Part shown: one piece after another, positions 17,285 through 30,515 of the stretch
Position numbering within the stretch: the first letter of the stretch is position 1
Layout of the letters: every line of letters starts with the position of its first letter
The notes under the pieces: model-generated
Databases searched by the model: none
Seen by the model: the letters and a program-made list of their open reading frames with translations, nothing else
Told to the model about the DNA's origin: nothing
Translations under genes and position numbers: made by a program
Assembly: GCA_021786105.1 (NCBI GenBank)
Contig: JAJYNW010000010.1
Span: 26,301-90,300, forward strand
Length of the DNA stretch: 64,000 nucleotides
DNA from: a bacterium
GTDB lineage: Bacteria > Patescibacteriota > Microgenomatia > Daviesbacterales > UBA10151
Reading direction: 5' to 3'

Positions 17285-18652
17285 ATGTTAAAGCTATATA
17301 ACACACTATCACGAAAAGTTGAGGACTTTGTTCCTATAAATACACCAAAGGTTGGACTTTATACTTGTGGCCCGACCGTTTATAACTTTGTCCATATCGG
17401 CAATTTAAGAACTTATATTTTTGAAGATATTTTGCAGAGGGTTTTAGAGGCTGATAGTTATGAAGTCAACAGAGTGATAAATATTACTGATATCGAAGAC
17501 AAAATTATCAAAAAAGCTGAGGAAGAAAGAGTAAGTATTGAGGTCATTACCAAGCCGTACGAGCAGGCTTTTTTGGAAAATTTACAAAAACTTAATATTA
17601 AATCAGCCAATGTTTATCCTAGGGCCACCGAGCACATTGGCAAAATGATCAAATATATTGAAGTTTTGATTGAAAAGGGTTTGGCGTATGTGGAAAAAGA
17701 TGGGTCAGTGTATTTTGATATTTCCAAATTCCCGGAATATGGGAAGTTATCTCAGCTTGATAAACGGGAAATTAAAGCCGGAGCTAGGGTAAAAGCTGAT
17801 GAATATTCCAAAGAAGATGTTGTCGATTTTGCCTTATGGAAAGCAGTCGGGTCGGATGAAATTGGTTATGATTCGCCGTGGGGCAAGGGTCGGCCGGGTT
17901 GGCATATTGAATGTTCGGTGATGAGTCAGGAATATTTGGGGGATACTTTTGATATTCACGCCGGAGCGGTTGATTTAATTTTTCCTCATCATGAAAATGA
18001 GATAGCTCAGTCTGAGGGTAAAACCGGTAAGAAGTTTGCTAATTTTTTTATTGAAGGCGAGCATTTGTTGGTAGACGGCCAAAAAATGGCCAAGTCTTTG
18101 GGTAATTTTTTCACCTTGAAGGATATTGAAGCCAAAGGATTTGACCCTTTGGCTTTCAGGTATTTGGTATTAACTGCCCATTACAGGGACAAATTAAATT
18201 TCACCTGGGAATCTTTGCAGGCTGCCCAAAATGCTTTAAATAATTTAAGGGAAATTATTCGTGATTGGCCTTCTTCTGTCATTGCGAGCCCCGAAGGGGT
18301 GCGGCAATCTTATTACCAGAAATTTATGAGTGCTGTCAATAATGATTTAAATATACCCCAAGCTTTGGCGGTAATGTGGGATATGGTCAAATCTGATAAT
18401 CCAACTTCTGCCAAAGCCAAATCAATTTTGGAAATGGATAAAATTTTAGGCTTAAAGTTAGATGAATATTTAGGGAAAAAACTGGAAATTCCGGAAGAAG
18501 TACAAAAGTTAGTTAACCAAAGGGAACAAGCGCGTAAATCTGGAGACTTCAAAAAATCAGATGAACTGCGCCATGAAATTAAAAAACTAGGTTTTGAAAT
18601 CGAAGATACTCCTCAAGGTCCCAAAATAAAAATTGACAAACAGCCCTCCTAG
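17285..18652 (+). CDS. cysS: cysteinyl-tRNA synthetase
   Basis: Class I HIGH-like (CGPTVYNFVHIGN) and KMSKS (KMAKSLGN) motifs. Confidence 0.9.
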   Translation: MLKLYNTLSRKVEDFVPINTPKVGLYTCGPTVYNFVHIGNLRTYIFEDILQRVLEADSYEVNRVINITDIEDKIIKKAEEERVSIEVITKPYEQAFLENLQKLNIKSANVYPRATEHIGKMIKYIEVLIEKGLAYVEKDGSVYFDISKFPEYGKLSQLDKREIKAGARVKADEYSKEDVVDFALWKAVGSDEIGYDSPWGKGRPGWHIECSVMSQEYLGDTFDIHAGAVDLIFPHHENEIAQSEGKTGKKFANFFIEGEHLLVDGQKMAKSLGNFFTLKDIEAKGFDPLAFRYLVLTAHYRDKLNFTWESLQAAQNALNNLREIIRDWPSSVIASPEGVRQSYYQKFMSAVNNDLNIPQALAVMWDMVKSDNPTSAKAKSILEMDKILGLKLDEYLGKKLEIPEEVQKLVNQREQARKSGDFKKSDELRHEIKKLGFEIEDTPQGPKIKIDKQPS

Positions 18653-18671
18653 ATATAAACTATCGGATAAT

Positions 18672-19190
18672 ATGACAGCAGAGTTTGAACAATTACCGAC
18701 AACCCATTTTTTAGTAAGACAAGGAATAATTGGATCAGGAAATTCAGTGTTGCCTTGGAAAGGGCGAATTTTTGAGAGAGTTCCTATTAATGTAACAGTG
18801 AATTGGAAACCAGGAATTACAGATGTAGAAATTAGCAATCAATTTGTTGCAGAGAGATTGCAGATCAGAGAAGTATTTGCTGATATGGTTATGCTAAGGC
18901 AAAATGCGTTTGGTATAAAAGGAATCATTCTGGAGCCAGACAACAAAGATTTTGACTGGTATTTTGGTTCTTTTGACCCAAATTCTCGTGATCTTTATTT
19001 AAAAAGAGAGGGCCGCGATTGGATAACAGTACCTACAAATATTGGAAGCTTTCCACAAAGAATAGTAGCTGATATTGATAGAGAGAAAACAGAAAGATAT
19101 TTACCTAAAGGGGGAACAGTGGATGAAGCTATTGAAGCATTTATGAGAATTAGAAGAATAATAGAATCTGCAATTCCGTTTACAACCTAA
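18672..19190 (+). CDS. hypothetical protein
   Basis: 173 aa from the internal Met (MTAEFEQL). No family recognized; A-ending codons dominate, unlike cysS. Confidence 0.4.
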   Translation: MTAEFEQLPTTHFLVRQGIIGSGNSVLPWKGRIFERVPINVTVNWKPGITDVEISNQFVAERLQIREVFADMVMLRQNAFGIKGIILEPDNKDFDWYFGSFDPNSRDLYLKREGRDWITVPTNIGSFPQRIVADIDREKTERYLPKGGTVDEAIEAFMRIRRIIESAIPFTT

Positions 19191-19326: not shown

Positions 19327-19358
19327 GGTGTAGCTACACTTCCACCTCGGAGGTGGAA
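19327..19358. repeat. two adjacent perfect palindromes (GTGTAGCTACAC and TTCCACCTCGGAGGTGGAA)
   Basis: The second is related to the CACCTCGAAGG/CCTTCGAGGTG palindrome found twice inside purL. Confidence 0.4.
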
Positions 19359-19411: not shown

Positions 19412-20110
19412 GTGGAAACTGAAGTTATTACAATTGACGGGCCGACCAGTTCCGGGAAAAACAGCGTGGGTTTTTTACTGGCGCAAAAATTAGGCTACCA
19501 ATATATTGATTCCGGTTCAATTTACCGGGCCGGCAGTATTTTCGTTTTGCGGAACAATATTTCCCCAGATAGCGAAAAAGTTGCGGAAGTTTTCAAAAAT
19601 CTGCAAATAGAAACTAAAACTCAAGATCATGAGGTGAGGTTTTTGGTAAATGGGGAAGATATCACAGATCATTTGCATGATCCCGAGGTGACTAAAACTG
19701 TTCCAATTGTTGCTGCTATTGGGGAGGTTAGAGAAGAGGTTAAAAAAATCCAATACAATTTAGTAAATTCTAAAAATACGGTTATGACCGGTAGGGATAT
19801 CGGTTCAGAAATTTTTCCCGATGCCATGCATAAGTTTTATTTAACTGCTTCAGTTGAAGTAAGAGCCCAAAGGCGTTTTAAGCAGTTAGTGGAAAAAGAT
19901 CCAAAAGTAAAATATGAGGAAATTTTGAAGAGTATGGAAGACAGGGATGAGAAGGATATGACTAGAGAGGTGTCCCCCTTACGGATTCCGGAAGATGCGG
20001 TGGTGATAGATAACTCGGATTTAACTATTGAACAAACAGTGGAAAAGATGTTGAAGTATATACAATCAAATGTCATTGCGAACGAAGTGAAGCAATCTGG
20101 GTCGGGTTAA
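19412..20110 (+). CDS. cmk: cytidylate kinase (GTG start)
   Basis: P-loop GPTSSGK and CMP-binding motifs, 232 aa. Confidence 0.85.
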   Translation: METEVITIDGPTSSGKNSVGFLLAQKLGYQYIDSGSIYRAGSIFVLRNNISPDSEKVAEVFKNLQIETKTQDHEVRFLVNGEDITDHLHDPEVTKTVPIVAAIGEVREEVKKIQYNLVNSKNTVMTGRDIGSEIFPDAMHKFYLTASVEVRAQRRFKQLVEKDPKVKYEEILKSMEDRDEKDMTREVSPLRIPEDAVVIDNSDLTIEQTVEKMLKYIQSNVIANEVKQSGSG

Positions 20111-23626: not shown

Positions 23627-25045
23627 ATGGGAAAGAGATTGAAAGAGAAATGTGGAATATTTGGAGTTTATGGAACGGGATTTGAGGCAGCCCGATTAGT
23701 TCACCCCGGGCTTTGGGCCTTGCAACATCGAGGCCAAGAATCTTCCGGAATTGCATCTTCTGACGGTAAAAAGATCTATCTTCATAAAGGCATGGGCTTA
23801 GTTTCTCACGTTTTCGGAGAAGAAGACTTAAAAAAATTAAAAGGATATTTAGCAATTGGTCATAATCGTTATTCCACCTCAGGCGATTCAATTGACTCCC
23901 ACGCCCAACCAATTTTAGAAAAAATTAATGCTAATAAATTCATTGCCTTAGTCCATAACGGCAACCTTCCCTCCACTCAAAAGTTAGCAGAATTCCTAAA
24001 GGATAAAAAGGTTAGTGCATCCGGTCTTAATGATTCGGAAATGATTACTAAGGCAATTGCAGTTTTAGTCAAAGAAGGTTTAAGTTTGGAAGCGGCTATT
24101 AAAAAAGCATACCCTTTATTTACCGGTGTATTTTGTTTGTTGATTATGAATGAGGAAAAAATAATTGCGGTCAGGGATGGTTTCGGAATCAGGCCGCTTT
24201 GTTTGGGGAAATTAAACGGAGGGTTTATTGTAGCATCTGAAACCTGTGCCTTAGACATTATCGGAGCCAAATTTTTGCGGGAGGTGAAACCTGGTGAGAT
24301 GGTTATACTTGATGATAAAGGTTTACAAGGTGTCCAGATTGAAAAAGGTCAACAAAAGCTGGATGTTTTTGAATATGTCTATTTTGCCAGACCCGACAGT
24401 ATAATTTTGGGAAAAAGCGTTGATGAAGTCAGACAGAATTTAGGCAAAGAATTGGCTCGGGAAAATCAGATCAAAGCTGATATGGTCATCCCGGTTCCCG
24501 ATTCTGCAATACCGGCAGCCATAGGTTTTTCTAAAGAGTCAAAAATCCCTTTTGAAATGGGCCTTATTAAAAACCGCTATATTCACCGAACTTTTATTTC
24601 TCCGGAAGTACATGCCCGTCATAAAATGGTCCAATTAAAGCTTAACCCGATGCCGCATGTCCTCAAAGGGAAAAAGGTGATTATTATTGATGATTCAATA
24701 GTTAGAGGAACAACTTCAAAACAAATTATTAAAATGATTAAAGATGCCGGGGCTAAAGAAGTTCATTTATTGGTTTCCTCGCCTCCGGTGAAATTCCCGG
24801 ATTTTTATGGTATCGATACTCCTAAACAAAAGGATTTGATCGCGGCAGAAAAAAATATCAAGCAGATTGCCCAGGAGTTAGGGGTAGATTCCTTGCATTA
24901 TTTATCTTATCAAGGTTTGATAAAAGCCATTGGTTTGCCTGAAAATCTACTCTGCACCGCCCTTTTTAATGGCAATTATCCTGTGGATATCGGGGAAAGA
25001 AGGAAAGAGATAGTTTATGAAAAAAATAGCAGTTTTAATATCTAA
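23627..25045 (+). CDS. purF: amidophosphoribosyltransferase
   Basis: N-terminal CGIFGV glutamine amidotransferase nucleophile and a PRTase domain (VIIIDDSIVRGTT). Confidence 0.9.
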   Translation: MGKRLKEKCGIFGVYGTGFEAARLVHPGLWALQHRGQESSGIASSDGKKIYLHKGMGLVSHVFGEEDLKKLKGYLAIGHNRYSTSGDSIDSHAQPILEKINANKFIALVHNGNLPSTQKLAEFLKDKKVSASGLNDSEMITKAIAVLVKEGLSLEAAIKKAYPLFTGVFCLLIMNEEKIIAVRDGFGIRPLCLGKLNGGFIVASETCALDIIGAKFLREVKPGEMVILDDKGLQGVQIEKGQQKLDVFEYVYFARPDSIILGKSVDEVRQNLGKELARENQIKADMVIPVPDSAIPAAIGFSKESKIPFEMGLIKNRYIHRTFISPEVHARHKMVQLKLNPMPHVLKGKKVIIIDDSIVRGTTSKQIIKMIKDAGAKEVHLLVSSPPVKFPDFYGIDTPKQKDLIAAEKNIKQIAQELGVDSLHYLSYQGLIKAIGLPENLLCTALFNGNYPVDIGERRKEIVYEKNSSFNI

Positions 25046-26966
25046 CAAAGGTACAGGTACTAATCTACAAGCAATCATTAACGGGGTAGAAAGCGGAAAA
25101 ATTCCGGCTAAAATTGCAGCGGTAATTTCTGATACACCTGAAGCGCAAGGTTTAACAAGAGCCAAAAAACACAGACTTCCAATTAAAATAGTTCCGAAAA
25201 AAGAAGGACTGTCAGCAGTATTAAAAAAGCTGAACCCTGATTATATTTGTTTGGCTGGATGGAAACAGATTATTTTGGATGAGGTGATTGAGGCATTTCC
25301 TAATCGAATTTTAAATGTTCACCCCGGGCTTATACCGGATACAATGGACGGAGTTGTTAAAAATCCGGACGGAACCAACGGTCTATGGAATAAAGGGAAA
25401 ATGACCGATAAGGCCATGCAGAACTTTTTTGATAATAAGGCAACATATGCCGGTTCAAGCATTCATTTCTTAACTTTGGAATTTGATTTCGGACCGGTAT
25501 TGGGTAGAGGTTTTGAAGAGATAAGACGCGGGGATACCGTTGAATCTTTATATTCTAGATTAAAAATCAAAGAGAATAAATTGTATGCAGAGGTTTTGGC
25601 AAAACTTTGTTCTTCCCAAACCGTCTTAATTATTGATGGAGGCGGAAGAGGGTCAGTGCTGGTTGATAAATACGGGCAAAGCGAACAAATAGGGAAAATT
25701 TTAGTTATTCCCGGTAACGATCTGATGCAAATCAATACCAAAAAGCCGGTGATGACTTACCAACATTTGAAAACTACATCAGTTGACGAAATTTTAGAAA
25801 TTTGCCAAAAAGAAAAAGTGGATTTAGTGGATGTAGCTCAGGATAATGCAGTGGAAGTTGGGTTAGTAGATAAGCTGCAAAAAAATAAAATACCGGTAGT
25901 TGGTCCAACCAGGTTAGCCGGACAAATCGAATGGGATAAAGGATGGTCAAGGGATTTTATGAGAAAATATCAAATTGCGCACCCTAAGTATTATGTTTTC
26001 TCAACGGAAAAGGATGGAATAAAATTTGCAGAAGAATCAGAAAACCCTAAATGGTTTGTGAAAGCGGCTGGTTTGGCAGAGGGTAAAGGGGTGATACCGG
26101 CAGAGAATAAAAAAGATGTAATTAACGCTATCAAGCAAATGAGTAAATTTGGCAGCTCCGGCAAAACTTACTTATTGGAGGAATGGCTAACAGGTGAAGA
26201 ATTCTCGGCTTTTGCAATTTGCGATGGGAAAACTTTTAAATTGGTAGGTTTTGCTCAAGACCATAAAAGGGTAGATGATGGCGATCAAGGTCCTAATACC
26301 GGAGGGATGGGTTGTGTGTCCAGTCCTTTAATAGTTGATAAAAATATTAAAAGCCAGATAGAGGAAATCTTTAAAAAAGCTATGGCAGGTTTAAAAAAAG
26401 AAAAAAGGCCATACCAAGGAGTTTTGTATTTGGGTGGGATAGTAGTTGGAGGAAAAACTTATGTAATTGAATTTAATGCCAGGTGGGGAGATCCGGAGGC
26501 AGAAGTAATTGTGCCGTCTATCAAAAATGATTTGTTTGATTTATCAAAGGTTATAATTTCGGGAAGGATTAAAGACTTTGATGTCAGAACAGATAACAAA
26601 GTTAGAGTGGCAGTAGCGGGTGCAGCAAAAGGTTATCCGGTTGATTATTCTAAAGTTAAAGGTAAAAAAGTGTTGGGAATTGATAAAGCTATGCAAACAG
26701 GAGTTAAAATTTATGGCGCGGGTATTAAAAAAATTGACGGAGATTTTGTAGTTAATGGTGGCAGGGTTTTATATATGGTGGCGGAAGGAAAGAATATTAT
26801 GGACGCAAGAGAAAAAGCTTATAAAGCTATGAAATTGATAAAAATTGAGGGAGATAACTTGCATTACAGAAAAGATATTGGTTGGAGGGATGTTGAGCGA
26901 ATGCGAAATCCTGAGCGAGCGAAGCGAGTCGAAGGAGAAAGGCTGAAAAATGATACAAAAAGTTAG
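25017..26966 (+). CDS. purN-purD: fused GAR transformylase (PurN, N-terminal) and GAR synthetase (PurD, C-terminal)
   Basis: N-terminal PurN motifs (NVHPGLIPD) followed by a PurD ATP-grasp, 649 aa in total. The 3' tail is encoded by a degenerate copy of the GAGCGAAGCGAG element. Confidence 0.85.
   Translation: MKKIAVLISNKGTGTNLQAIINGVESGKIPAKIAAVISDTPEAQGLTRAKKHRLPIKIVPKKEGLSAVLKKLNPDYICLAGWKQIILDEVIEAFPNRILNVHPGLIPDTMDGVVKNPDGTNGLWNKGKMTDKAMQNFFDNKATYAGSSIHFLTLEFDFGPVLGRGFEEIRRGDTVESLYSRLKIKENKLYAEVLAKLCSSQTVLIIDGGGRGSVLVDKYGQSEQIGKILVIPGNDLMQINTKKPVMTYQHLKTTSVDEILEICQKEKVDLVDVAQDNAVEVGLVDKLQKNKIPVVGPTRLAGQIEWDKGWSRDFMRKYQIAHPKYYVFSTEKDGIKFAEESENPKWFVKAAGLAEGKGVIPAENKKDVINAIKQMSKFGSSGKTYLLEEWLTGEEFSAFAICDGKTFKLVGFAQDHKRVDDGDQGPNTGGMGCVSSPLIVDKNIKSQIEEIFKKAMAGLKKEKRPYQGVLYLGGIVVGGKTYVIEFNARWGDPEAEVIVPSIKNDLFDLSKVIISGRIKDFDVRTDNKVRVAVAGAAKGYPVDYSKVKGKKVLGIDKAMQTGVKIYGAGIKKIDGDFVVNGGRVLYMVAEGKNIMDAREKAYKAMKLIKIEGDNLHYRKDIGWRDVERMRNPERAKRVEGERLKNDTKS
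26895..26940. repeat. degenerate GAGCGAAGCGAG-type element forming the C-terminal codons of purN-purD
   Basis: CCTGAGCGAGCGAAGCGAGTCGAAGG resembles the TGTCATTCTGAGC..GCGAAGAATC elements at 28590 and 36124. Confidence 0.35.
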
Positions 26967-29736
26967 AGTACAAACAATAGGGCAACAAAACATTAAAGTT
27001 TATCGACTAGAGGGAATATTAGAAAAAGACGCCAAAATTTTGGCTGAAAAATTACTATCGGAATCAATCAACCAAAGGTATGCAATTAACCGTCCAATCC
27101 ACCTCGAAGGAGTTAAAGCCCACCTTCGAGGTGTGGCTGTAATAGAAATTGCTTATAAACCAGGGGTCATGAACCCGGAAGTAACATCGATTATGAAAGC
27201 TGCTTCTGATTTGGGGATTAAACTAATTGCCTGCGATAGCTCCATGGAGTACCTTAATAAAAAGGTTTCCTTTAATCCTTTAATAGAACATATAGTGACA
27301 GAAGAACCGCAAACACTTTTAATCAAAGAAAAACAAAGTCAAACTCAAATAATCCCAATCAGAAATCTTAATGATAAAGAGCTTTTGGATTTATCCAAAG
27401 ATAAACTTTTCTTAAATTTGGAAGAAATGCAAACCATCCAAAAATATTTTCAAAAAATCAACAGAGATCCGACTGATTTAGAACTGGAAACTTTAGCTCA
27501 AACTTGGAGCGAGCACTCCGGTCATAAAACTTTTAAAGCGAAATTAATTGTCGACGGCAAAGAAAAAGAACCGCTAATCCAAAGGATCAAAAAAGAGGCT
27601 TTGAAACATAATAAAAATATTGTGTCAGCATTTGAGGATAATTCCGGGGTGATGGATTTTTATGATGGTTTCGGAATTTGCGGCAAAGTGGAAACCCACA
27701 ATGCTCCGTCAGCTATTGAACCATATGGCGGGGCAATGACCGGTTCGGGTGGGGTGTTTCGCGATATCGCGGCAACCGGAAAAGGCGCAAAAAATATAGC
27801 CTCAACCGATATCTTTTGTTTTGCGCCGGTTGATTTACCTATTGAGAAATTACCTCAAGGTTGTTTGCCGCCGGAATATTTATTAAAAAGGGTGGTAGCC
27901 GGAGTGAGGGATTACGGGAATAGAATGGGAATTTCGACTAATAACGGATCAGTGCATTTCCAGGAAGATTTTCGGGCCAGACCAACAGTGATTGTGGGGG
28001 CATACGGCATAGTGCCGAAAAAATATGCTTTAAAAGACAAGCCGAAAATTGGAGATTTGATAATTTGTGTGGGCGGGCGGACAGGCAGGGATGGAATTCA
28101 CGGAGCCACTTTTTCTTCCGGTGAAATGACTGAACGGACAATTGAAGTGCATTCTTCAGCGGTGCAAATTGGCAATGCCATTGAGGAAAAAAGAATGTTT
28201 GATGCGCTCTTGGAAGCTAGAGACAGAGATTTAATCAGGTTGATACAGGATGTCGGTGGTGGAGGATTCTCGTCAGCTGTCGGTGAAATTGGAGAAAGTT
28301 TAGGGGTATCAGTTGATATTAAAAATGCGCCGTTAAAATACCAGGGTTTAGCACCTTGGGAAATTTGGGTGTCAGAGTCCCAGGAAAGAATGGTGGTGGT
28401 TTTAGAGGAAAAGAATCTGGAAGGATTTAAAGACCTTTGCAAAAAACATAACGTGGAGATGGCAGTTTTAGGAAAGTTTGATGGCAGTAAAAAATTAAAC
28501 GTGACTTTTGGAGAGGAAGTTGTCGGCGATTTAGATATGCATTTTTTGCATAAAGGGTTACCGAAAAGAATTCTTAAAGCCACCTCTCCTGTCATTCTGA
28601 GCACAGCGAAGAATCTCGAGATTAATGAATTTAGAGATCCTTCACTAATCGTTCAGGATGACAAAATTGAAGAGCCAAAAACAGAAAAAGAATGGATTGA
28701 AGTTTTGAAAAAGGTTTTGGGTCACGGTAATGTTTGTTCAAAAGAGCCAATTGTCCGGATGTATGACCATTCGGTCCAGGGGACTAATGATTTGCAGCCC
28801 TTTTCCGGTGTAACTTTAGACGGGCCAAATGATTCTCCGGTTTTGCGGCCATTCTTGGATAAAAAATATGGCATGGTAATTTCTCATGGATTAAATCCGA
28901 TACTAAATAATATTGATCCATATTGGGGGAGTATTTGGGCAGCAACAGAAAGCTTATCAAATTTTGTGGCAGTGGGAGGAGACTATAAAGAAGCTTGTCT
29001 GATAAATAATTATATTTGGCCGTTTCCGGATGAGGAATCACTTTGGTCATTGGATAGATCTGTTGATGCAGTAGTAGATTTTATGAAAGTTTTCCAAATC
29101 CCGGTAATTTCAGGCAAGGATAGTTTGTCCTCAACTTACCGGGCAGCAAACGGCACGATTATTAAAATTCCCCCAACACTTTGTATGTCAGTTTTTGGCA
29201 GAATTCTTGATGTCGATAAAACTGTCACTGCTGATTTTAAGAAAGTTGGTTCAACAATTTTGTTGGTAGGAAAAACGGATAAAAGTTTAGGCGGATCCAT
29301 ATATTATCAAGTAAATAATTTAGAAGGAAATTCTTTGCCGAAAGTAGATTTGAAATTATTGTCAGAAGTTTTTACAGCAGTTAATAACGCAATAACAAAT
29401 GGAAAAGCATTAGCAGTTCACGATGTATCAGAAGGGGGAATAATTTCTACAATCTTTGAAATGTGTGTGGGCGGAGGGATGGGGGCAGATATCCACCTCG
29501 AAGGAGTCAAAGCCCACCTTCGAGGTGATCAGATTTTGTTTAACGAAACTGCAGGGTGTTTTATTGTTGAGGTGGAAAACAAAAAAGTCGCTGAGCGACT
29601 TTTTAAAAATATTCCTTATCACATCTTAGGAGAAACAAAAGTAGATCAAAAAATAGAAGTAAAAAATCTGTTTAAAGCCGACGTTAATGATTTGAAAAAA
29701 GCTTGGCAGGAACCAATGAGGAGGTGCTTCAAATGA
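26950..29736 (+). CDS. purL: FGAM synthase PurL with an N-terminal PurS-like extension; carries three in-frame repeat insertions
   Basis: 928 aa with PurL AIRS-domain motifs (VETHNAPSAIEPYGGA, GDYKEACLINNYIWPF). purQ follows. Confidence 0.85.
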   Translation: MIQKVRVQTIGQQNIKVYRLEGILEKDAKILAEKLLSESINQRYAINRPIHLEGVKAHLRGVAVIEIAYKPGVMNPEVTSIMKAASDLGIKLIACDSSMEYLNKKVSFNPLIEHIVTEEPQTLLIKEKQSQTQIIPIRNLNDKELLDLSKDKLFLNLEEMQTIQKYFQKINRDPTDLELETLAQTWSEHSGHKTFKAKLIVDGKEKEPLIQRIKKEALKHNKNIVSAFEDNSGVMDFYDGFGICGKVETHNAPSAIEPYGGAMTGSGGVFRDIAATGKGAKNIASTDIFCFAPVDLPIEKLPQGCLPPEYLLKRVVAGVRDYGNRMGISTNNGSVHFQEDFRARPTVIVGAYGIVPKKYALKDKPKIGDLIICVGGRTGRDGIHGATFSSGEMTERTIEVHSSAVQIGNAIEEKRMFDALLEARDRDLIRLIQDVGGGGFSSAVGEIGESLGVSVDIKNAPLKYQGLAPWEIWVSESQERMVVVLEEKNLEGFKDLCKKHNVEMAVLGKFDGSKKLNVTFGEEVVGDLDMHFLHKGLPKRILKATSPVILSTAKNLEINEFRDPSLIVQDDKIEEPKTEKEWIEVLKKVLGHGNVCSKEPIVRMYDHSVQGTNDLQPFSGVTLDGPNDSPVLRPFLDKKYGMVISHGLNPILNNIDPYWGSIWAATESLSNFVAVGGDYKEACLINNYIWPFPDEESLWSLDRSVDAVVDFMKVFQIPVISGKDSLSSTYRAANGTIIKIPPTLCMSVFGRILDVDKTVTADFKKVGSTILLVGKTDKSLGGSIYYQVNNLEGNSLPKVDLKLLSEVFTAVNNAITNGKALAVHDVSEGGIISTIFEMCVGGGMGADIHLEGVKAHLRGDQILFNETAGCFIVEVENKKVAERLFKNIPYHILGETKVDQKIEVKNLFKADVNDLKKAWQEPMRRCFK
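27097..27133. repeat. 37 nt palindromic element (CACCTCGAAGG-loop-CCTTCGAGGTG) in-frame inside purL, encoding IHLEGVKAHLRG
   Basis: It matches 29491-29527 at 36 of 37 nt inside the same gene, while the flanking protein sequences are unrelated. Confidence 0.6.
28590..28663. repeat. 74 nt MITE-like element in-frame inside purL (TGTCATTCTGAGCACAGCGAAGAATCTCGAG...TCGTTCAGGATGACA), encoding VILSTAKNLEINEFRDPSLIVQDD
   Basis: Almost identical to the intergenic copy at 36124-36196, with the same termini and internal AGAGATCCTTCACTAATCGTTCAGGATGACA. Confidence 0.6.
29491..29527. repeat. second copy of the 37 nt CACCTCGAAGG/CCTTCGAGGTG palindrome in-frame in purL
   Basis: See 27097-27133. Confidence 0.6.
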
Positions 29737-30515
29737 GACCAAAAGTTTTAGTTTTAAAAGCAGATGGAACAAACCGGGATGAAGAAATGGCTTTTGCTTT
29801 TAAGATTGCAGGTGGGGATCCGAAAATAATTCATGTAAACGAATTGCGAAATGGATCAGAGAGAATGGAAAATTTTCAAATTTTGGCTTTACCGGGCGGG
29901 TTTGCTTATGGGGATGATATTGTGTCGGGAAAGATTTTAGCAATTGAATTAACCTCATTTTTTGCAGAAGAACTAAGGAAATTTATTGATAGGAAAGATA
30001 CGGCAATTTTGGGAATTTGTAATGGATTTCAAGTTTTGGTCCGAACAGGTTTGCTTCCATTTAGAAATGTGGGAAGAATGGATGTGACTTTGACTAATAA
30101 TGATTCCGGGCATTTTGAGTGCAGATGGGTGAAAGTAAAAGTTAATAAAAACAGTAGGTCTAAATTTTTGCGGGGACTTGAGGAGCGAATTATTTGGTAT
30201 CCGGTGGCACACGGTGAAGGAAAATTCTTTACAGACAATAAAACTTTAAAAAAAATAGAAGATAATAATTTAGTTGCATTTAGGTATGTTGATAATAATG
30301 GGAATCAGACCCAAAATTATCCGGCAAACCCTAACGGTTCTTTAAATGCGGTAGTAGGAATTTCTGATGAGACTGGCAGAATTTTAGGAATGATGCCGCA
30401 TCCGGAGTGTTTTGTGAGAGTTGAGCAGCACCCAAACTGGCGGCGTGGTAAAGTTAAAGTAATGGGTTTACCGCTTTTTGAAAATATAGTGGAATTCGTG
30501 AAAGGAGTAAAATGA
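29733..30515 (+). CDS. purQ: FGAM synthase glutaminase subunit
   Basis: GGAG SD, then MRPKVLVLKADGTN...GICNGFQ. Class I glutamine amidotransferase motifs present. Confidence 0.9.
   Translation: MRPKVLVLKADGTNRDEEMAFAFKIAGGDPKIIHVNELRNGSERMENFQILALPGGFAYGDDIVSGKILAIELTSFFAEELRKFIDRKDTAILGICNGFQVLVRTGLLPFRNVGRMDVTLTNNDSGHFECRWVKVKVNKNSRSKFLRGLEERIIWYPVAHGEGKFFTDNKTLKKIEDNNLVAFRYVDNNGNQTQNYPANPNGSLNAVVGISDETGRILGMMPHPECFVRVEQHPNWRRGKVKVMGLPLFENIVEFVKGVK

Follow-up and report, generated by a model that had tools for sequence, protein, structure and literature searches.

In-frame hairpin repeats in a Daviesbacteria purL gene, probably copies of a short dispersed element of Microgenomates

Introduction

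To our knowledge, palindromic "selfish DNA" that lies in frame within proteins is essentially a curiosity of Rickettsia, accompanied by scattered intragenic repetitive extragenic palindromic (REP) sequences elsewhere. In the AT-rich and compact genomes of yeast mitochondria, GC clusters and "byp" elements constitute GC-rich palindromic mini-elements of about 30–50 nt that are mobile, fall into several families and are sometimes intragenic; byp elements are reportedly skipped by the ribosome, and their reading frame is said not to need keeping. Here, we are describing a hairpin repeat that occurs twice within purL, a purine biosynthesis gene, in a 64,000-nt stretch of DNA from a bacterium of the Daviesbacterales (Patescibacteriota, Microgenomatia; GenBank assembly GCA_021786105.1, contig JAJYNW010000010.1, positions 26,301 to 90,300 of the forward strand), hereafter the window. 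With a probability of roughly 80%, we take the two purL repeats to be copies of a dispersed, non-coding hairpin repeat that is selfish or neutral and specific to Daviesbacteria and other Microgenomates within the candidate phyla radiation (CPR).

Three groups of described bacterial repeats are relevant for comparison: (i) the palindromic elements of Rickettsia (RPEs), RPE-1 to RPE-10, of Ogata et al. 2000 (summarised in PMC10969869 and PMC3733652); (ii) the REP/REPIN sequences with their RAYT transposases, comprising GTAG- and CGTC-tagged superfamilies (PMC3733652); and (iii) intragenic MITEs (miniature transposable elements with inverted repeats), such as ERIC, Correia and RU-1/2/3, which are 100–400 bp in size and have target-site duplications and a cognate insertion sequence (IS) (PMC10969869, PMC2759123).

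The Two Hairpin Copies in purL

By the names of its homologs, the DNA belongs to Candidatus Daviesbacteria. The gene is part of a purine biosynthesis operon comprising purF, purN-purD, purL, purQ, guaA, purA and further genes. The features of the locus are as follows.

26950..29736 (+): host gene purL, 928 amino acids, an open reading frame (ORF) with Pfam matches; fusion of a PurS-like N-domain, an FGAR-AT linker and PurL (FGAM synthase II)
27098..27133 (+): copy 1 of the hairpin element; the left arm at 27100-27110 (CACCTCGAAGG) and the right arm at 27123-27133 (CCTTCGAGGTG) enclose the loop at 27111-27122 (AGTTAAAGCCCA, a T variant that is rare), and a TC flank precedes them at 27098-27099; encodes (I)HLEGVKAHLRG as PurL residues 50-61
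29492..29527 (+): copy 2 of the hairpin element; the left arm at 29494-29504 and the right arm at 29517-29527 enclose the loop at 29505-29516 (AGTCAAAGCCCA, equal to the consensus of the family), and a TC flank precedes them at 29492-29493; encodes (I)HLEGVKAHLRG as PurL residues 848-859

The Pfam domains of the host ORF are FGAR-AT_linker (PF18072), AIRS (PF00586) and AIRS_C (PF02769). The 37-nt sequence ATCCACCTCGAAGGAGTTAAAGCCCACCTTCGAGGTG is found at 27097-27133 (+) and, near-identically, at 29491-29527 (+), with a single T>C difference (1 of 37 bases) located within the loop. The spacing of 2394 nt corresponds to 798 codons, so that both copies share one frame and encode IHLEGVKAHLRG (I-H-L-E-G-V-K-A-H-L-R-G), once in the N-terminal, PurS-like part and once near the C-terminus of the 928-residue protein, just as an earlier note on this DNA had stated. 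The peptide stretches spanning the element-encoded residues are ...NRPIHLEGVKAHLRGVAVIEIAYK... and ...GADIHLEGVKAHLRGDQILFNE.... The same note had spoken of a 37-nt palindrome, of which the repeat stands and the palindrome does not; each copy folds into an 11-bp stem (CACCTCGAAGG / CCTTCGAGGTG) enclosing a 12-nt loop, i.e., a hairpin and no true palindrome. The DNA fold has a free energy of about -12 kcal/mol (z = -6.0 and -6.3 for the two copies), the RNA fold one of -21.5 and -19.5 kcal/mol, respectively. Within the window, no further 37-nt match was found at up to three mismatches, and 100 dinucleotide-preserving shuffles contained none and no such pair. A comparison of positions 26800-29900 with Rfam gave no credible match, the sole match listed being at chance level (E = 7.1; 16.4 bits compared with a gathering score of 55).

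The same purL gene with both copies is contained in two further records, L001 (ENA ERZ27237183; 99.995% identical to the window) and L002 (GCA_027424735.1; 100%), which makes a one-off assembly artefact unlikely, though all three assemblies represent essentially one strain and, at this level of identity, are uninformative on within-strain polymorphism.

A Dispersed Hairpin Family in Microgenomates

For a census of the element, a degenerate pattern with the middle of the stem left free was scanned over one genome per species (GTDB representatives). This returned at least 119 stretches, of which at least 111 unique elements were left once the loop and no fewer than 9 of 11 paired stem positions had been required; counts out of 111 given below refer to the unique elements among the matches listed. 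The purL copies are independent members of this family, not duplicates of one another. The consensus is 5'-(T-Y)-CACCT-N4-GG-AGTCAAAGCCCA-CC-N4'-AGGTG-3', with a core of 34 nt, or 36 nt including the preferred 5' dinucleotide, and with the invariant columns CCT...GGAGT..AA.CCCACC...AGGT.

The hosts are Daviesbacteria (the majority), Curtissbacteria, Gottesmanbacteria, Levyibacteriota and metagenome-assembled genomes labelled "Microgenomates/Patescibacteria group", or mislabelled bins, and individual genomes contain at least 5–9 copies. Bins labelled "uncultured Gammaproteobacteria" or "Flavobacteriales" in which the element is present encode Daviesbacteria-type genes; this concerns L086, L090, L094, L097, L098 and others among the TPA "uncultured Gammaproteobacteria" bins as well as L092 ("Flavobacteriales", 2.2 kb), and the taxonomic labels of these records look wrong or the contigs mis-binned. 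The few matches in other, non-CPR phyla have just 4–8 of 11 stem positions paired, as expected of chance matches. Among the viral contigs of IMG/VR, checked in view of a possible phage vector, no element copy was matched.

Stem and loop differ in their variation. The middle four stem pairs exist in at least nine perfectly complementary versions (CGAA 29, CCGA 21, CGGG 18, TCCA 13, GGAA 8, CGGA 7), and 99.3% of the stem cells are paired, compared with 42–52% in slid controls. Two-sided stem changes amount to 117 cells versus 32.6 in shuffles, a value that 0 of 500 shuffles reached; compensatory types are seen at four stem pairs, and the loop is nearly invariant. In favour of a maintenance of the arms, L110 and L200 have flanks that are 95% identical and elements that differ by just one, exactly compensatory pair. 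On identical arms, the loop is inverted between L112 and L126, and likewise at the second PurL site of L003. The loop of the element was never seen with other stems. Copies at orthologous sites agree at about 91% of their positions (95% in the loop) compared with 72% for their flanks (60–75%); the value for the copies is inflated, 19 of their 34 positions having been set by the scan pattern.

Beyond the hairpin itself, T (66%) and C (27%) predominate at position -2, 88% of the copies have C or T at position -1, and 51% have T at position +1. The 5' T-Y preference is kept in every frame and in intergenic copies, which suggests either that the unit is 36 nt long (12 codons) or that certain targets are preferred. 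The G-rich strand holds 70 of 113 copies, corresponding to a weak replication-strand bias.

At two loci (L004:16432 and L100:2727), a second palindrome, GAGAGTCCGGTGGACTCTTGAGA, extends the loop of a canonical hairpin to 33 nt in what looks like a nested insertion.

Reading Frames and Host Genes

Stop-to-stop ORFs of at least 120 amino acids contain 98 of the 111 listed copies (88%), the other 13 lying outside any such ORF; since these ORFs cover 88.5% of the same loci, coding sequence is not avoided. Among the matches listed, the possible readings are used as follows.

S0, HLEGVKAHLRG: 31 copies
S2, TSKESKPTFEV: 29 copies
O2, TSKVGFDSFEV: 25 copies
S1, PRRSQSPPSR: 11 copies
O1, PRRWALTPSR: 2 copies
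O0, containing TGA: 0 copies

None of the 98 genic copies listed breaks the frame of its host, and the TGA-containing frame is never used. Sense and antisense copies stand at 71:27, a modest sense bias, and the five open frames are used unevenly (chi-square of about 32, calculated by hand), which indicates filtering on the encoded peptide. In the simplest reading of the sequence data, the element would be translated along with its host, adding about 12 residues to the protein. Element insertion rather than protein homology, for which the earlier note had argued from the two purL copies, is supported by at least 111 copies in unrelated genes and, in particular, by the five frame and orientation readings, which rule out a protein motif.

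Host ORFs include RF1, assigned by source names and Pfam domains, and, as we presume from viewing the translated sequences by eye, a UvrA-like ORF (L095) and RecG-, aminopeptidase-, ComM-like ATPase- and AspRS-like ORFs. Frames differ between genomes even at one and the same site: in the AspRS-like gene, the orthologous site is read as S0 in four genomes and as S2 in one, and the first PurL site is read as S0 in the window and as S2 in L003 and L115. At the positions examined, i.e., in PurL, RF1 and the AspRS-like gene, the element is located in variable loops or linkers. Among 40 RF1 orthologs sampled regardless of the element, about 12 carry it, about half of these in diverged form (DTSGVVFDSLKV, NTSEVGSDSSEV, NTSKESGPTFEV and others), and there are shorter remnants (STQDIPTSKVGSPN); evidently, copies decay and get deleted. 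A second case of decay is given by L149 in comparison with L127.

PurL Orthologs and Predicted Structure

Across 50 PurL orthologs of 65–80% identity, both sites are hypervariable loops; the 11–12 element residues are absent from most of them, with 3–8 unrelated residues present instead, and PurL of distant lineages does not conserve the same residues at these positions. A few orthologs contain element-like peptides, namely HLGGVKAHPRG, HLWGVQAHPRG and HLEGVKARLPG at site 1 and HLEGVKALLRGD, HLKGVKAHLRGD and HLEGVKAHLRGN at site 2, and in others the same DNA is read differently, as TSKVGFDSFEV at site 2 (orthologs P0004 and P0030) or as xESKPTSxV at site 1 (P0004, P0012 and P0019). On the DNA level, an identical 34-nt core is present at site 2 of L003 (whose PurL is 78% identical), in a different frame and with the inverted loop mentioned above, while site 1 of L003 holds an element variant with swapped arms; site 2 of L004 (PurL 67% identical) holds this core in forward orientation; and in the site 1 copies of L005 and L007, the stem is changed from CGAA/TTCG to CGGG/CCCG. 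In a neighbour-joining tree of PurL, the element is patchily distributed, with the closest relatives of element bearers (W/P0005; P0004/P0006) lacking it. L003 (CAZKCV) also has the purine operon of the window in the same gene order. The sequence "ESKPD" in ortholog loops was considered as a DNA-level relic of the element and rejected; it differs in codon usage, and K-P-D corresponds to the consensus of the native loop.

In an AlphaFold2 model of PurL (mean pLDDT 77), both sites are predicted to be loops between secondary-structure elements, with reduced confidence, which is consistent with the surface loops that the earlier note had proposed to look for. Site 1 would be situated between strands 42-46 and 65-69 of the PurS-like N-terminal domain, with residues 54-61 below a pLDDT of 50, and site 2 would connect strand 845-848 to helix 859-863, the block of 10 residues at 851-860 having a mean pLDDT of 70 versus 92–97 in the adjoining blocks. 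Thermus PurL (3VIU) has a gap of 5 residues at site 2. The element partly substitutes for the native loop at this site and is no clean 12-residue addition, so that the 12-residue gap for which the earlier note had proposed to look is not clean there, even though most of the 50 orthologs lack the element residues.

Sister Hairpins and Neighbouring Repeats

A further palindrome, which had been regarded as related to the purL copies, is located elsewhere in the window.

19340-19358 (unstranded): perfect palindrome TTCCACCTCGGAGGTGGAA, stem variant CGGA/TCCG, without loop; intergenic, between ORFs 18633..19190 and 19412..20110

It is indeed perfect and intergenic, but it is a stem-only relative and not a copy of the element; containing the stem sequence alone, it is one of a small group of such palindromes that stand isolated. 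In total, the 13-mer CACC-N4-AGGTG has about 137 matches versus 4–7 in shuffles, an approximately 20-fold excess, of which about 12 are isolated. The idea that solo 13-mers are excision footprints was dropped as a general explanation, given that nearly all of them are arms of sister hairpins with other loops. These sister families have the stem CACCT-N4-(A)GGTG and loops such as TAATCGCATTTCTT, AGTCCATTCGGCCA and GGCCGAATGGACT, and are represented at the following positions.

L160:2202; L175:1144; L201:7200; L124:1276; L032:4521; L115:3182-3260: sister hairpins

Sister hairpins and the canonical element share exact boundaries at orthologous sites, as is evident from L160 versus L142/L099, L175 versus L122/L162, L201 versus L194 and L124 versus L156/L134.

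Two other repeats were observed close to the hairpin copies. The first, at 28591-28662 (+), is a third palindromic insert in purL and belongs to another dispersed family; spanning about 72 nt, this imperfect hairpin has the arms GTCATTCTGAGC..GCGAAGAATCTC / GAGATCCTTCAC..GTTCAGGATGAC and encodes the peptide VILSTAKNLEINEFRDPSLIVQDDK (PurL residues 548-571) in an inter-domain linker with pLDDT below 50, it is absent from most orthologs, and eleven related left arms are found in other loci. The second is the GC-rich dispersed repeat CCTGAGCGAGCGAAGCGAGTCGAAGG (window 26907-26935), which encodes the C-terminal tail ...NPERAKRVEGERLKNDTKS of the purN-purD fusion (ORF 25017..26966, overlapping the start of purL by 17 nt); it has five related copies in other loci, and several orthologs have the same peptide, (S)HPERAKRVEG, as the filling of their PurL linker. 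The operon contains two fusions, purN-purD (Formyl_trans_N and GARS, 649 amino acids) and PurS-like/PurL (928 amino acids); L004 has separate purN and purD genes.

Origin and Maintenance of the Element

What is observed is a multi-copy, lineage-restricted element that keeps the frame of its hosts, is tolerated in loops and undergoes gain, loss, inversion and decay among orthologs. As the likely mechanism, a selfish or neutral element would be copied to new sites by a mechanism acting in trans, and selection would spare in-frame, stop-free insertions in permissive loops and no others, which would explain the repeated hits on the same two PurL loops. After insertion, replication template switching between the arms, an established mutational route (PMC8794818, PMC8604942), may keep the arms perfectly complementary and sometimes invert the loop; such homogenisation and inversion would account for perfect stems, "compensatory" variants and two loop orientations. 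Finally, copies would be lost through point decay and in-frame deletion.

Several findings weigh against a selfish or neutral dispersed element. Target-site duplications were not apparent, with 23 of 2 bp observed versus 15.5 expected (maximum of 27 in 1000 shuffles) and those of 3–4 bp at chance level. A clean empty site was not found among related loci, the loop regions being too variable; in the best pair, L003 and L006 with 95% identical flanks, 36 nt stand in place of 15 unrelated nt, and in RF1 the element fills a linker of similar length in all orthologs. Neither an autonomous element with the same arms, within 1.5 Mb of fetched loci, nor a mobilising enzyme linked to the element was identified, and the copy number per genome is modest. 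The 12-nt loop is near-invariant at orthologous sites to a degree that exceeds simple neutral decay, albeit in a sample ascertained by the loop pattern; this could reflect selection or recurrent conversion. Furthermore, the presence of sister loops at identical orthologous boundaries is not predicted by simple random transposition.

These last observations, together with the conserved 5' T-Y flank, are hints of a different arrangement, which we regard as doubtful. According to it, the hairpins are substrates of a hitherto undescribed, hairpin-specific DNA transaction system in Microgenomates, with an 11–13-bp stem handle (CACCT-N4-(A)GGTG) and with loops that are exchanged as cassettes at fixed chromosomal sites. 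If true, this unit of about 36 nt would be the smallest mobile one known from bacteria, homing to and persisting in loops of housekeeping proteins and continually remodelling them.

Somewhat less likely still is a functional cis-acting signal, i.e., a single-stranded DNA or RNA hairpin under purifying selection, the loop of which is read by a Microgenomates-specific protein, with coding regions being merely tolerant. The almost invariant loop on a co-varying stem, the excess identity of orthologous copies over their flanks, the 5' T-Y flank that is conserved whatever the frame, intergenic copies included, and the modest biases to the sense strand and the G-rich strand are in line with such a signal. 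However, template switching is able to keep the arms complementary even where selection plays no part (PMC8794818, PMC8604942), and the identity values are inflated by the fixed positions of the scan pattern. Moreover, both orientations relative to transcription are frequent, the density is low (roughly one copy per tens of kb), the same sites in sister taxa lack the element in a patchy distribution, decayed copies are frequent in samples taken regardless of the element, and Rfam has no match.

Equally improbable, in our judgement, is a genuine REP/REPIN sequence that is mobilised by a REP-associated, IS200-like tyrosine transposase (Y1 HUH) acting on the single-stranded hairpin. Size and hairpin form match those of REPs, a dinucleotide 5' of the hairpin is conserved, at least one inverted doublet exists (L127/L149), and IS200-like Y1_Tnp genes (223 amino acids, PF01797) are conserved across Daviesbacteria with 60–86% identity, once per locus examined. 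These genes, however, are bracketed by a palindrome of their own.

L168:3865-4641: Y1_Tnp gene, with the CCGATCCNGGATCGG palindrome on both sides
L204 and L205:3945-4717: Y1_Tnp genes, with the CCGATCCNGGATCGG palindrome on both sides

This palindrome was found nowhere else in the 1.5 Mb of fetched sequence, L206 and L208 retaining just degenerate CCGATCCNGGATCGG remnants beside Y1_Tnp. A Y1_Tnp gene is present in 2 of the 119 listed element loci, which is about chance if genomes of about 1 Mb carry one or two (both assumed values). In addition, the GTAG or CGTC tag as defined in PMC3733652 is absent, and the copies are 88% intragenic, whereas REPs are predominantly extragenic.

As a separate observation, a Curtissbacteria Y1_Tnp gene (L109:1563-2082) is associated with three copies of ACGAGGTC-N-GACCTCGT, one just upstream and two within the coding sequence.

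A conserved peptide motif, IHLEGVKAHLRG, with a function on the protein level and present twice in PurL by convergence or internal duplication, would fit the shared frame and peptide of the two copies and the occurrence of HLxGVKAHxRG at the same sites in a few orthologs, but it is refuted by the frame and orientation data: the same DNA yields TSKESKPTFEV, TSKVGFDSFEV, PRRSQSPPSR or PRRWALTPSR elsewhere, even at the same PurL loops, the copies outside ORFs of at least 120 amino acids do not conform to it, nor does the majority of orthologs, which lack the peptide, and E>G and L>P changes follow compensatory stem changes. Local de novo formation of hairpins by template switching, quasipalindrome formation or gene conversion between the purL sites, without any dispersed element, or an assembly artefact, is refuted by the cross-genome census, for although template switching can make perfect hairpins (PMC8794818) and both copies lie in one gene, an identical 12-nt loop with identical arm ends at more than 100 unrelated sites in dozens of genomes cannot arise independently, and the copies are present in separate assemblies.

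Implications

Seen as copies of a dispersed selfish or neutral hairpin, the purL repeats extend a phenomenon hitherto linked mainly to Rickettsia to a much smaller and mostly intragenic unit in the streamlined genomes of CPR bacteria; a prior description of the element in CPR was not found in the searchable literature. The element provides loops and linkers with variation, both in core enzymes such as PurL and RF1 and in the AspRS-, UvrA- and RecG-like ORFs (look-alikes by sequence). For the annotation of CPR proteins and for their phylogenetic and structure modelling, caution is advisable where HLEGVKAHLRG, TSKESKPTFEV or TSKVGFDSFEV are encountered, as these are element-derived peptides. Finally, the element offers a compact natural system for investigating how hairpins get copied, inverted and kept perfect.

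Comparison with Known Systems

In size and composition, the nearest analogues that we are aware of are the GC clusters and byp elements, which are organellar and eukaryotic. In contrast to byp elements, every listed genic copy of the hairpin is in frame, and the stop-containing frame is avoided.

MITEs resemble the element in having terminal inverted repeats, in being non-autonomous and in being capable of in-frame fusions; their length of 100–400 bp, the target-site duplication and the cognate IS were all not found for the element, the IS within the 1.5 Mb of fetched loci.

With REP/REPIN sequences, the element shares the form of a GC-rich imperfect palindrome of 20–40 nt that folds into a stable hairpin, is dispersed and is occasionally intragenic (REPs, e.g., in uvrA), and REPs are suspected to be mobilised by an IS200-like Y1 transposase, an enzyme family that is present in the Daviesbacteria clade. 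It differs from them in lacking the GTAG/CGTC tag, in its mostly intragenic location, in its low copy number and in not flanking Y1_Tnp genes, which own distinct hairpins in the handful of genes examined.

The analogy to RPEs drawn in the earlier note holds for in-frame insertion into unrelated genes but not for family membership. Both are non-coding palindromic repeats that lie in frame in unrelated housekeeping genes, are translated (presumably so for the present element) within the host protein and tolerated in surface loops, and both are lineage-specific with no transposase encoded inside. RPEs, however, are about 100–150 bp in size (the short RPE-4 and RPE-6 being CGTC-tagged) and occur in Rickettsia alone, whereas the present element comprises 34–36 nt of unrelated sequence without CGTC and occurs in Microgenomates; about half of the RPEs are located in ORFs compared with 88% of the copies listed here; and the Daviesbacteria element is distinguished by an invariant loop, a co-varying four-pair stem cassette and sister families with other loops. 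Hence, the element acts like RPEs and intragenic REPs and belongs to neither family.

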